Assembly: GCF_009931435.1 (NCBI RefSeq)
Contig: NZ_CP043414.1
Strand: one strand, 5' to 3'
Source of the DNA: Escherichia coli
Lineage (GTDB): Bacteria; Pseudomonadota; Gammaproteobacteria; Enterobacterales; Enterobacteriaceae
Length of the DNA stretch: 64,000 nt
The translations under genes were made by a program, and so were the position numbers. Under the pieces are notes generated by a model that was not told the DNA's origin, made no database searches, and worked only from the letters and a program-made list of their open reading frames with translations. Below, in pieces: positions 47,594 through 56,234 of this stretch. The first letter of the stretch is position 1, and the number at the start of each line of letters is the position of its first letter.

Positions 47594-48253
47594 ATGCCAG
47601 CTTTAGATTTGATTCGACCGTCGGTAACCGCCATGCGGGTGATTGCCTCTGTTAACGCCGAATTTGCGCGTGAACTGAAATTGCCGCCGCATATTCGTAG
47701 CCTCGGGCTGATTTCTGCTGATTCCGATGACGTCACCTACATTGCGGCTGACGAAGCGACCAAGCAGGCGATGGTTGAAGTCGTGTATGGTCGCTCGCTG
47801 TATGCGGGAGCCGCACACGGCCCGTCACCGACTGCCGGTGAAGTGCTGATTATGCTCGGGGGGCCAAACCCGGCGGAAGTGCGTGCTGGTCTGGATGCGA
47901 TGGTTGCGCATATTGAAAATGGCGCGGCTTTCCAGTGGGCTAACGACGCGCAAGATACGGCATTCCTGGCACATGTAGTTTCGCGTACCGGTTCTTATCT
48001 CTCATCAACCGCCGGGATCACGCTTGGCGATCCGATGGCGTATTTGGTGGCACCGCCGCTGGAAGCGACCTACGGCATTGATGCAGCGTTGAAATCTGCC
48101 GACGTGCAGCTGGTGACCTATGTCCCGCCACCGTCTGAAACCAACTACTCGGCAGCATTTTTAACCGGTAGCCAGGCCGCGTGTAAAGCAGCCTGTAACG
48201 CCTTTACCGATGCAGTGCTGGAAATCGCGCGTAATCCAATCCAGCGTGCGTAA
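47594..48253 (+). CDS. eutL: ethanolamine microcompartment shell protein EutL (tandem BMC domain)
   Basis: 219-aa ORF. Confidence 0.95.
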
Positions 48254-48265
48254 CGGAGGTTGCCG

Positions 48266-48766
48266 ATGATCAATGCACTGGGATTGCTGGAAGTGGACGG
48301 CATGGTCGCCGCGATAGATGCAGCTGATGCCATGCTCAAAGCAGCTAACGTTCGTCTGCTCAGTCACGAAGTGCTTGACCCTGGTCGCCTAACGCTGGTG
48401 GTGGAAGGCGATCTGGCGGCGTGTCGTGCGGCGCTGGACGCAGGTTGTGCTGCCGCGATGCGTACCGGGCGTGTCATCAGCCGTAAGGAGATCGGTCGGC
48501 CAGACGATGACACCCAGTGGCTGGTTACTGGCTTTAACCGCCAGCCGAAGCAATCCGTAAAGGAACCCGACGCGCCAGTTATCGTCGCGGAATCTGCTGA
48601 CGAGTTGTTGGCGCTGTTAACATCAGTACGTCAGGGAATGACGGCAGGAGAAGTGGCTGCCCACTTTGGCTGGCCGCTGGAAAAAGCCAGAAATGCGCTC
48701 GAACAGCTCTTTTCTGCCGGGACGTTACGTAAACGCAGTAGTCGTTATCGTCTCAAGCCCCATTAA
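48266..48766 (+). CDS. eutK: ethanolamine microcompartment shell protein EutK (BMC domain plus C-terminal helix-turn-helix-like domain)
   Basis: ORF track 48260..48766; start at the third codon gives MINALGLLEVDGMVAAIDAADAMLKAA..., 166 aa. Confidence 0.9.
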   Translation: MINALGLLEVDGMVAAIDAADAMLKAANVRLLSHEVLDPGRLTLVVEGDLAACRAALDAGCAAAMRTGRVISRKEIGRPDDDTQWLVTGFNRQPKQSVKEPDAPVIVAESADELLALLTSVRQGMTAGEVAAHFGWPLEKARNALEQLFSAGTLRKRSSRYRLKPH

Positions 48767-48811
48767 CCTGTCGGAGGTGCCGGGTGTCCTACAACACCCG
48801 GCATTAACATC

Positions 48812-49864
48812 ATGAAAAAGACCCGTACAGCCAATTTGCACCATCTTTATCATGAACCCTTACCCGAAAACCTGAAGCTCACGCCGAAGGTCGAAGTGGA
48901 TAATGTTCATCAACGGCAAACAACGGATGTCTATGAACATGCTTTGACGATTACCGCCTGGCAGCAGATTTACGATCAGCTGCATCCGGGCAAGTTTCAT
49001 GGTGAATTTACGGAAATTCTACTCGATGATATTCAGGTTTTTCGTGAATACACCGGTCTGGCGCTGCGTCAGTCGTGCCTGGTCTGGCCGAACTCGTTCT
49101 GGTTTGGCATTCCGGCGACACGCGGTGAGCAGGGATTTATCGGTTCGCAATGTCTGGGAAGCGCAGAAATAGCGACGCGCCCTGGAGGAACCGAGTTTGA
49201 ATTAAGTACGCCGGACGATTACACGATCCTTGGCGTGGTGCTTTCTGAAGATGTCATCACCCGTCAGGCTAACTTTTTGCATAACCCGGAAAGGGTGCTG
49301 CATATGTTACGTAACCAGTCGGCGCTGGAAGTGAAAGAGCAGCATAAAGCCGCGCTGTGGGGCTTTGTCCAACAGGCTCTGGCGACATTTTGCGAGAACC
49401 CGGAAAATCTCCATCAGCCTGCAGTGCGAAAAGTGCTGGGGGATAATTTGCTAATGGCGATGGGGGCGATGCTGGAAGAAGCGCAGCCAATGGTGACGGC
49501 GGAAAGTATCAGCCACCAGAGTTACCGTCGCTTGTTGACCCGCGCGCGTGAATATGTGCTGGAGAATATGTCCGAACCGGTAACCGTGCTGGATTTGTGC
49601 AATCAACTGCATGTCAGCCGCCGCACGCTACAAAACGCGTTTCACGCTCTTTTAGGCATTGGCCCAAACGCGTGGCTGAAACGCATTCGCCTGAACGCCG
49701 TGCGCCGCGAACTGATAAGCCCGTGGTCGCAAAGTACAACGGTCAAAGATGCCGCCATGCAGTGGGGATTCTGGCATCTGGGGCAATTCGCCACGGATTA
49801 CCAGCAACTGTTTGCCGAGAAGCCGTCTCTGACGCTACATCAGCGGATGCAGGAACTGGAGTGA
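48812..49864 (+). CDS. eutR: AraC-family transcriptional activator of the eut operon EutR
   Basis: 350-aa ORF with C-terminal AraC-type helix-turn-helix. Confidence 0.9.
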
Positions 49865-49940: not shown

Positions 49941-50258
49941 TTATTGCCCAACGGGATAGGCGATAAACAAACCGACAATTGTCAGAATACACGCCAGCAG
50001 GAATACCAACATACAATTTACGCGCTTTCGCGAAATTTTAAATAAATAGCAAAATAGTGTTGTTACCACGATCACTACCGGGATAGTCATAAAATTAATA
50101 ACGATGAGTGCTATCAATCCAAAACTTGCTCCTCCACCGTGGGGAATAAAAATGTGTTCTTCAAAATAAACTTCTATAGCAAATGCCAGCACACATCCCA
50201 GAAAACTCATATCCAGATGAGGGTGCCATTTACTTTCTTTATTTGATGTGTCTGACAT
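49941..50258 (-). CDS. hypothetical small membrane protein (105 aa, three predicted transmembrane helices)
   Basis: ATG 50256-50258 with GGGAG Shine-Dalgarno about 9 nt upstream, TAA at 49941-49943; three hydrophobic stretches after a polar N-terminus; visibly AT-rich relative to its flanks; I do not recognise the protein. Confidence 0.6.
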   Translation of the reverse strand: MSDTSNKESKWHPHLDMSFLGCVLAFAIEVYFEEHIFIPHGGGASFGLIALIVINFMTIPVVIVVTTLFCYLFKISRKRVNCMLVFLLACILTIVGLFIAYPVGQ

Positions 50259-50298
50259 TCTTAAATGCTCCCGTGAGCAAACTGGCGCAAAATAATTT

Positions 50299-51561
50299 CT
50301 AAGATTGCTGATAAGACGTCGCTGTTGTCCGGCACTCCGGGCAGATAAACGCGTAAATTATCCCTTCGCCATATTGTTCAATATCGGCATAATCCAGTTG
50401 CGCAAGAAACATCATTGTGTGGGAACATTGCGGACAGAGAGGATATTCCGCGTCCTGAATCCAGGTTGGATGCCCGCCAAGTTGCGAGAAAGAGACAGGT
50501 AAAAATGGGTCTGCGGCAAATAACGGTGACCTAAGGTTTCCCTGTCTCATGCTGTTTACAGGGAGTCGACGCCATTCCGATACATCATCCGGCAGCTAGG
50601 CAGGCGGGATATTTTTTGCAGACAAATGAGCGTTACCCTTTGAGTCCATGTAGCCGAAAATGGTGCTGTAGGCGGTGCAACATTCGCAAGTCACGACGCG
50701 AAAACTGCCGTTATCGCTAAGACCCGTTGCCTTCAGGTCAACGTCGAAAAGATTTGTTAGGGGCAATGCGCACTTTGGACAGGTATCGCTGCGTTCATCA
50801 ACAACACGCAAAGCTTCGCAAGACCCGGTGCTTTTCATCTCCAGATGAAAACATTGAGGAAAATAGAGATTACGCCTTTGATCTTCAGCGGTTAACTCCC
50901 AACCGGCCTCATGCGCATATTCTTCTGGCGCGATGTAAAGTGAACTGCGCCACAGCGGCGGGTTATTGCGCCAGTAGGCAAAACGTTCAACAACAACGTC
51001 ATCCCCAATCCATGCCAGACATTGCAGAATACAATTTCTGTTTTCTGCATCATCCTCAACCCGTTCTAACAGCGTATCGCGAACATCCGCTGGGGCGCGG
51101 TGGAAAGGCAGAGGAGAATAAGCGTCTAAATCATCATAAGAGATCCACTCTCGTAAATATGCATCCAGATTTGCCTGGGTAAACGCCGCCAGACAAAGAC
51201 AAATCTCCTGAGCGTGTTCATATTCACCAGACGCAAAGCGTTCTGTGGCGTAATCAGCCATCAGCTGCGCTTGATCGGCGGTCAACTGTTGATACAGGGC
51301 ATCGGTGGGAGCGGGGCAGGGAGTCCAGTCGATTAACGCATCGAATTTCCGTGGCTGGTGAACTAATTTCAGCATGGCAATCGGATCGCTTAGCCCAGCA
51401 AACACATTCACGGTCTTTTTATTTTTCCTGATATATTCATCGTGCTCACGCTGCTGTTGTGCCTGAACGCAGGGCATACAGTATCCGTCAGTACGCGCAG
51501 CGGTTTCCGGAAGAATGGTTGATGTACAAGCGGGGCTTTTACAGGGAATACGGTGAGTCAT
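50299..51561 (-). pseudogene. Cys-rich multi-zinc-ribbon protein gene with tentatively DUF1963/YwqG-like C-terminus; 420-codon frame interrupted by one in-frame TAG at 50596-50598
   Basis: ORF track entries 50596..51561 (321 aa) and 50299..50550 (83 aa) are in the same frame; the 45 nt between them read through as LPDDVSEWRRLPVNS; AAGGAG Shine-Dalgarno 8 nt upstream of ATG 51561; Cys pairs CKSPAC..CMPC, CPKC..CECC and CPQC..CPEC. Confidence 0.6.
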
Positions 51562-55193: not shown

Positions 55194-56177
<984 letters not shown>

Positions 56178-56197: not shown

Positions 56198-56234
56198 AAA
56201 GGCCAGCCAGTAACACAACTGGCTGGCCTTTTTA
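56198..56234. terminator. bidirectional intrinsic terminator between yfeX and yfeW
   Basis: aaaggccagccagtaacacaactggctggccttttt: perfect stem flanked by A and T runs, ending at the yfeW stop. Confidence 0.7.

Follow-up and report, generated by a model that had tools for sequence, protein, structure and literature searches.

A conserved RNA hairpin in the eutK–eutR spacer of Escherichia coli and a possible split ribosome-binding site for the regulator gene eutR

What does the GC-rich hairpin between eutK and eutR do, and at which step of gene expression would it act on the regulator gene? The window, meaning the whole 64,000-nucleotide stretch of E. coli DNA that was analysed (RefSeq assembly GCF_009931435.1, contig NZ_CP043414.1), carries the E. 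coli eut operon on its plus strand. EutK combines a BMC domain with a C-terminal EutK_C helix-turn-helix domain (Pfam; BMC 1.3e-22, EutK_C 8.8e-26), the function of which is unknown (PMC5821096), and the eutR product is the AraC-family activator of the eut operon. Transcription of eutR is low and constitutive from an internal promoter P2 and proceeds by read-through from the main promoter P1 when the operon is induced, and this read-through into eutR is the basis of autoinduction (PMC5821096; PMC8565329). The eutR mRNA is a substrate of RNase E, against which the sRNA MavR protects it by binding to the 3′ part of the coding sequence (PMC8565329). In a literature search on the eutK–eutR hairpin, the eutR transcription start and the control of eutR translation, only MavR turned up, with no description of the hairpin. 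A promoter scan of the region gave no match, and the weak promoter P2 was located neither by the scan nor by eye. The elements of the junction are as follows.

48764–48766, + strand: eutK stop codon TAA, from the open reading frame at 48260–48766 and the RefSeq annotation.
48767–48811, + strand: spacer of 45 nt from the eutK stop to the eutR ATG, with the identical gap and genes in RefSeq.
48767–48772, + strand: spacer segment CCUGUC between the eutK stop and the Shine–Dalgarno (SD)-like sequence, nearly invariant in the 31 aligned spacers.
48773–48779, + strand: SD-like sequence GGAGG(UG), with GGAGG at 48773–48777; the sole strong anti-SD match 5′ of eutR.
48778–48803, + strand: hairpin P1, with the 5′ arm at 48778–48787, the loop CCUACA at 48788–48793 and the 3′ arm at 48794–48803, from folding and covariation.
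48804–48811, + strand: linker UUAACAUC, the A/U-rich, unpaired stretch without an SD between the hairpin and the start codon.
48812–49864, + strand: eutR coding sequence of 350 aa with its start codon at 48812–48814, from the open reading frame and RefSeq; the N-terminus MKK... is kept in relatives.
48810–48855, + strand: putative start-codon hairpin (helix P2), tentatively placed from folding and synonymous-site conservation.
48771–48774, + strand: putative 5′ strand (UCGG) of a weakly predicted long-range helix P0, including the first two G of GGAGG.
48864–48867, + strand: putative 3′ strand (CCGA) of the same weakly predicted helix, in eutR codons 18–19.

On the other side of eutR, three ORFs of 105, 83 and 321 aa were found on the minus strand at 49941–51561, where K-12 has hemF directly after eutR. 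The 83-aa ORF matches the start of DUF1963, and the pair formed by it and the 321-aa ORF resembles a split version of a 425-aa gene that Salmonella (L065) has at the same place.

Within the 45-nt spacer, gccgggtgtcctacaacacccggc occupies 48779–48802 of the plus strand, and the stem is a perfect 10-bp Watson–Crick helix in which U48778–U48787 pair with A48794–A48803 around the 6-nt loop CCUACA. In the RNAfold prediction, the helix is extended by two G·U pairs, G48776·U48805 and G48777·U48804. The earlier note had described a perfect 8-bp stem immediately upstream of the eutR start; the stem is indeed perfect and its length was understated, while the position holds roughly, with eight unpaired bases (48804–48811) between the stem and the ATG. 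The fold of the 48-nt spacer reached −23.6 kcal/mol against −11.9 ± 2.6 kcal/mol for shuffled sequences (z = −4.4), and none of 200 shuffles was as good; for a fold with 101 nt of context, z was −2.1. In the E. coli records, the 45-nt spacer was at least 99% identical in 5365 of 5390, and the one divergent record that was read differed in the loop and in one base just after the stop, with the stem intact.

When perfect stems of at least 9 bp with a loop of 3–8 nt were counted in the 64-kb window, 12 nested matches representing 7 distinct loci were found, against about 2 matches in first-order Markov simulations. The other perfect inverted repeats, with stems of 9–14 bp, lie at 19991–20022, 56198–56231, 34705–34732, 13860–13886, 5747–5768 and 55236–55258 and have the appearance of terminators or similar elements. 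Two of these, 19991–20022 and 56198–56231, have A-runs and T-runs on both sides and resemble bidirectional terminators.

We then compared the junction over 63 loci, taken from one genome per species with EutR, and 8 more obtained by protein search and contig look-ups. A hairpin was present at the same place in all of the 34 spacers folded, with energies of −16.7 to −23.6 kcal/mol and of −48 kcal/mol in Intestinirhabdus. It was also found in most of the lineages added later, and every examined spacer of 44 nt or longer carried one. Its range takes in Escherichia, Salmonella (enterica and arizonae), the Citrobacter freundii and amalonaticus groups, the Klebsiella oxytoca group, a K. pneumoniae-like lineage, Phytobacter, Pseudocitrobacter, a MAG assigned to Pluralibacter, Intestinirhabdus and others. 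These lineages have different stem sequences, and their loops are 3–8 nt long.

For covariation, 31 distinct spacers were aligned from the stem base outward with N padding to hold the MAFFT register, an anchoring that was adopted because a plain MAFFT alignment misaligns the upper stem. In this alignment, which is fitted to each sequence's own hairpin and so favours the structure (a bias that the slid controls and RNAalifold soften but do not remove), 96.7% of the cells were paired as opposed to 39–51% with the 3′ partner slid by 1–3 columns, 7 of the 12 pairs had changed on both sides, a number reached in 10 of 500 shuffles, and the covariation score was 0.372 compared with 0.02–0.08 in the slid versions. 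RNAalifold applied to the unfitted MAFFT alignment returned the same basal helix with 7 bp. G·U pairs are frequent in the stems, and in nearly all species the sense strand folds at least as stably as the antisense strand, in most of them much more so (−23.9 versus −15.7 kcal/mol in Citrobacter, −24.3 versus −16.8 in S. arizonae and −50.3 versus −30.9 in Intestinirhabdus). The G·U pairs and the more stable sense strand indicate that the selected structure is an RNA in the eut mRNA and not a DNA palindrome, and for the same two reasons both a DNA palindrome and an antisense RNA are disfavoured as identities of the element. The hairpin itself, its covariation and its strand specificity are direct observations, and as judged from sequence comparison, the eutK–eutR hairpin is very probably a conserved mRNA structure maintained by selection. 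The GC-rich hairpin that the earlier note had placed in this spacer is real, with a z of −4.4 and compensating changes across enteric bacteria.

The five basal pairs, GCCGG with CCGGC, are exceptional in this alignment: three are invariant and two differ in no more than a few of the 31 spacers, in contrast to the freely varying upper stem and loop. Among the exceptions are a C-G to U-A change in Phytobacter and a U·G pair in Intestinirhabdus. Such a near-invariant base below a free upper stem and loop is what a protein-binding site would show, whether the protein bound the RNA hairpin or a DNA palindrome with GCCGG/CCGGC half-sites, and EutK, which is encoded immediately upstream and carries the C-terminal helix-turn-helix domain (PMC5821096), would be the candidate binder. 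The covariation of the inner stem and the many G·U pairs nevertheless point to RNA pairing rather than DNA half-sites, the basal pairs are changed in the two genera just named, and nothing links EutK to RNA, so that we consider a protein-binding site very unlikely. Slightly less credible again is a specific form of it, in which the hairpin base and GGAGG would be an operator for the EutK C-terminal domain, by which free EutK would tune eutR translation; if this were true, the assembly state of the microcompartment would feed back onto operon expression.

In Intestinirhabdus alba (L028:2915–2991), the hairpin has grown to a 77-nt helix of −48 kcal/mol by some 50–75 extra nt at the apex, and the foot of the stem, the GGAGG and a 9-nt linker have all been kept despite this insert. 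No second copy of the insert was found among the comparison loci. The sole eutK–eutR junction examined that lacks a large hairpin is that of Buttiauxella (L031:2983–3003), which has an 18-nt spacer and a 4-bp mini-hairpin with an SD (AAGGA) in its loop. Weakened versions occur in Klebsiella sp. S69 (L072:1400–1503) and Enterobacteriaceae bacterium ESL0689 (L068:1454–1503), both of which have GGAGA in place of GGAGG. Only 5 basal pairs are left in S69, where no eutK gene was called upstream, and ESL0689 has a GUG start for eutR and a REP-like stem, GCCGGAUG...CAUCCGGC.

Several familiar identities were tried for the element and rejected. It is not an intrinsic terminator, since the stem is followed by AUUAACAUC without a U-tract and a scan of 48200–49200 gave 0 terminator-like sites. 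The GC-rich stem at a gene end would suit a transcription attenuator or terminator that limits read-through into eutR, as the earlier note had proposed. We give this hardly any credence: there is neither a U-tract nor a terminator-scan match, autoinduction needs read-through from promoter P1, by which eutR is expressed (PMC5821096; PMC8565329), and the adjacency of GGAGG would go unexplained. A REP or other dispersed repeat was rejected as well: in 5389 E. coli genomes, a median of one site in each was matched, even with the E-value limit set at 10. The spacer element occurs once in the 64-kb window and the comparison loci, and no annotated feature lies over it in the E. coli records; the MG1655 annotation likewise has nothing at the eutK–eutR spacer, including no REP. 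Searches against Rfam 15 with a permissive threshold gave matches at chance level (12–17 bits against gathering thresholds of 37–50, E-values of 0.06 to 10).

A leader peptide or upstream ORF does not fit either, as five species have no start codon in the spacer and the position, frame and length differ elsewhere. E. coli does have a 7-codon mini-ORF in the hairpin at 48784–48807 (GUG UCC UAC AAC ACC CGG CAU UAA), whose GUG lies 6 nt after GGAGG, an ideal SD spacing, and whose stop lies 4 nt before the eutR AUG. It is found in E. coli and Escherichia sp. E1V33, has been lost in E. whittamii and is absent or different in other genera.

The second mechanism put forward in the earlier note, occlusion of the ribosome site by the stem, is not supported by the geometry: the AUG and the 8–11 bases preceding it lie outside the stem, and GGAGG lies just 5′ of it. 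An RNA thermometer or SD-occluding hairpin, usually a weak stem in which the SD or the AUG is paired, was rejected on the same ground, the AUG and linker being outside a stem of 10 perfect bp in a spacer that folds at −23.6 kcal/mol. An extension of the stem over the SD was also considered; it is predicted in E. coli and Citrobacter, where it takes in the last two G of GGAGG by weak G·U pairing, and is not predicted in Salmonella. Of the effect on eutR expression that had been supposed, a post-transcriptional or translational role is the most plausible part, whereas neither of the mechanisms proposed for it is supported. The hairpin most likely sets the level of eutR translation rather than stopping transcription.

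The strongest predicted pairing with the ribosome lies at the foot of the hairpin. In E. coli, GGAGGUG is a 7-nt anti-SD match, and its duplex with the 3′ end of 16S rRNA is worth −10.8 kcal/mol, compared with a best value of −1.7 kcal/mol within 12 nt of the AUG. GGAGG was present in 30 of the 31 aligned spacers and GGAGA in the other, at 0–2 nt from the 5′ foot of the helix. We defined a crown clade as the species with an EutR at least 85% identical to the query. In its members, the 12 nt before the AUG offered at best a duplex of −0.9 to −3.4 kcal/mol with the anti-SD (−5.5 kcal/mol in lineage P0008), while the GGAGG, at −9.5 to −10.8 kcal/mol, lies about 32–38 nt upstream of the AUG (34 nt in E. 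coli and about 85–86 nt in Intestinirhabdus). Once the hairpin is folded, the unpaired distance from SD to AUG is 8–13 nt with a mode of 10 (8–10 nt in E. coli), and in Intestinirhabdus a linear spacing of 86 nt becomes 9 nt. The linker from hairpin to AUG was 8–11 nt in all of the species with the hairpin. This SD arrangement and its spacing are likewise read directly from the sequences.

In relatives that lack the hairpin, 4–12 nt separate the SD from the AUG. The eutR genes of Brenneria, Pectobacterium, Dickeya and Lonsdalea are of this kind, with GGAGG 9–10 nt before the AUG, so that the enterobacterial site looks like that ancestral site with a helix added at the 3′ edge of the SD.

By analogy with phage T4 genes 25 and 38, we tentatively read the eutR site as a split (non-contiguous) ribosome-binding site, a serious possibility that falls somewhat short of probable. 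The 30S subunit would pair with GGAGG(UG) where the helix begins, and folding would bring the AUG into reach. As this geometry lies at the long end of workable spacing, the regulator would be translated at a low, fixed rate. The site has all of the sequence features of a split site, namely a distant SD, no canonical SD, a hairpin that fills the gap and compensatory conservation. A linear spacing of 34 nt is too far for a working SD, and folding of the helix cuts it to 8–10 nt, which matches the 9–10 nt of the hairpin-less relatives. The strict conservation of GGAGG where a proximal SD is absent is as expected if GGAGG is used there, and the Intestinirhabdus insertion, which left the geometry intact, amounts to a natural test of the arrangement.

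The eutK stop lies 6 nt before GGAGG, so that a terminating ribosome would cover the SD and reach the foot of the helix, and initiation at eutR may in this way be coupled to eutK. Use of the SD, the need of folding for initiation and any coupling to eutK are what we infer from the arrangement.

Other observations weigh against a split site. Ten unpaired nt plus the width of the helix end reach or exceed the longest spacing at which an SD still works efficiently. Thermodynamic folds of the naked RNA have GGAGG partly paired, with an unpaired probability of 0.06–0.54. The A-rich leader might also permit SD-independent initiation, and if transcription from promoter P2 starts downstream of 48777, the basal eutR transcript would be without the SD. 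Furthermore, Yokenella (L030:2957–3003), a metagenomic enterobacterium (L069:1456–1503; EutR 74% identical) and Entomohabitans (L070:1441–1503), in which EutR is 69–74% identical to the query, have the hairpin together with a strong SD 3–7 nt from the AUG, and thus lack one of the features listed above, the absence of a proximal SD. Yokenella and L069 also have an SD-like sequence 5′ of the hairpin. The hairpin can thus be kept where there is no gap to bridge; bridging cannot be the sole reason for it, and it may have another or an older function.

Intercistronic hairpins that stabilise mRNA are well known, and an mRNA stability or processing element is the function that these three lineages bring to mind, the hairpin being kept where a canonical AUG-proximal SD is available. 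Such an element could take two forms. It could be a barrier to 3′-to-5′ exonucleases which, after cleavage in the linker, protects the eutS–eutK part of the transcript and uncouples eutR, or it could stabilise the 5′ end of the eutR transcripts derived from promoter P2. The form is right for this: the stem is GC-rich, has no U-tract, comes shortly after a stop codon and gives way to a single-stranded A/U-rich stretch. The eutR mRNA is also an RNase E substrate (PMC8565329). The invariant GGAGG, the missing other SD in the crown clade and the constant residual spacing of 8–13 nt would however all be left without explanation, and we regard a stability element as unlikely, though as a serious rival.

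The distance from the eutK stop to the stem, constant at 11–13 nt in all species, bears on a further alternative. According to Liang, Rudd and Deutscher (2015), a REP within about 15 nt of a stop codon reportedly holds up the ribosome that terminates there, so that less of the upstream protein is made, and the hairpin might act as such a stop-proximal roadblock and lower the yield of EutK. Conservation of the SD would explain the constant distance equally well, the missing other SD of eutR would not be accounted for, and the element is not a REP and is single-copy in each genome. We consider a roadblock very unlikely.

The position of the SD also touches gene annotation. In a K. pneumoniae-like metagenome contig (L066:1501–1524; protein cluster P0014), EutR was called to begin with a TTG of the hairpin loop, in frame with the conserved ATG and 21 nt 5′ of it, which gives a 357-aa product, and the cluster has 2937 member sequences. 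The distant SD, an arrangement that misleads gene finders, has probably given rise here to an annotation artefact.

The initiation region may belong to a larger fold that includes the start codon. When the RNA was folded from the eutK stop to +60 of eutR, a three-way junction was predicted in E. coli, Citrobacter, Salmonella and Klebsiella, the arms of which are hairpin P1, the start-codon helix P2 (48810–48855) and the long-range helix P0 (48771–74 with 48864–67). Helix P2 would pair UCAUGA.AAAGA (−2 to +9) with UCUUU.AUCAUGA (+32 to +43, codons 11–15) and has −8.9 kcal/mol on its own. Helix P0 has 4 bp, with a pair probability of about 0.95 in the stop-to-+60 fold of E. coli and of 0.8–0.98 across the four genera.

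Synonymous-site conservation agrees with these arms. The five-codon windows starting at codons 11, 1, 10 and 17 rank second to fifth of 323, with 0.94–0.97 against a mean of 0.70, and within eutR 48812–48874 (codons 1–21) the conserved blocks, codons 1–5, 10–15 and 17–21, coincide with the predicted arms while codons 6–9 and 16 vary freely. The most conserved window of eutR by this measure lies elsewhere, at codons 47–52 (around 48950–48970; rank 1 of 323, major-codon fraction 0.98). Covariation gave a null result for helices P0 and P2: in the aligned sequences, 0 pairs had changed on both sides, and the paired fraction equalled that of shuffles. We treat the three-way junction as a lead and not as a finding.

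If the junction does form, it could close the initiation region: P0, P1 and P2 together would sequester the AUG and some of the SD, and eutR would be translated mainly once a ribosome that terminates on eutK has melted P0. This possibility overlaps with the split ribosome-binding site and does not exclude it. In its favour are the prediction of the junction in four genera with high P0 pair probabilities, the stability of helix P2 alone, the match of the predicted arms with synonymous-conservation ranks 2–5, and the retention of helix P2 by way of G·U changes in Entomohabitans and in ESL0689, the lineage with a GUG start. The eutK stop, 4 nt before the 5′ strand of helix P0, would also place the ribosome well to open the junction. 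Against it, besides the missing covariation, helix P0 has just 4 bp, of which the U-A pair is disrupted in 5 of 30 sequences, helix P2 is lost in the K. pneumoniae-like lineage and in lineage P0008, and the synonymous constraint could have another cause. We judge a closed initiation region improbable, if by no means negligible. Any occlusion of the ribosome site would come from helices P0 and P2, as suggested by folding and synonymous conservation and not by covariation, rather than from the stem to which it had been ascribed.

Whichever way the structure acts, its bearing is on EutR dosage. This dosage sets the threshold of the positive-feedback switch that Salmonella and pathogenic E. coli use in the gut, and it has to leave EutR able to compete with ethanolamine ammonia-lyase for adenosylcobalamin. 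An initiation region with a conserved structure would be a mutable handle on that dosage.

Among known systems, phage T4 genes 38 and 25 come closest to the proposed split ribosome-binding site. There, a hairpin between SD and AUG shortens a 22-nt spacing to 5 nt in gene 38 and a 27-nt spacing to 11 nt in gene 25, and mutations that destabilise the hairpin lower translation (PMC3014915; PMC7297116). Gene 25 has its site at the junction of two cistrons, and conservation of that site is limited to close relatives (PMC3014915). The eutR site shares with both genes a stable hairpin between the SD and the start codon and a linear spacing that is too long and is shortened by folding, and with gene 25 also the intercistronic position. 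Unlike them, it is chromosomal, stands in a bacterial operon before a regulator gene and is known here from sequence alone; its helix is longer and GC-rich, some relatives have a second, proximal SD, and its start codon may itself be paired. If the reading is true, eutR would provide a rare chromosomal counterpart of the T4 split site.

In thrS of E. coli, as in eutR, a hairpin interrupts the elements used by the ribosome in a chromosomal gene (PMC7297116). The thrS SD, in contrast, is at a normal distance from the AUG, and the hairpin parts it from an upstream single-stranded enhancer (PMC7297116); moreover, the thrS hairpin is an operator bound by ThrRS, whereas the eutR hairpin has no known binding protein. 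Stabiliser hairpins and REP elements, such as that of malE–malF, resemble the eutR element in being GC-rich stem-loops without a U-tract just 3′ of a stop codon within an operon, but REPs are dispersed in hundreds of copies with a consensus, while the eutR element is single-copy and has an SD fixed to its foot. Intrinsic terminators and attenuators share the GC-rich hairpin and differ in that the eutR element has no U-tract and stands where the regulatory loop requires read-through. Finally, the ANTAR/EutV antiterminator hairpins of Firmicute eut operons are also RNA hairpins before eut genes that control expression, yet they are hexaloop hairpins in pairs, overlap with terminators and serve as binding sites for EutV (PMC5821096). 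The eutR site, by comparison, has a single hairpin with a variable loop of 3–8 nt and no terminator, and the regulator at its locus is EutR, not EutV.
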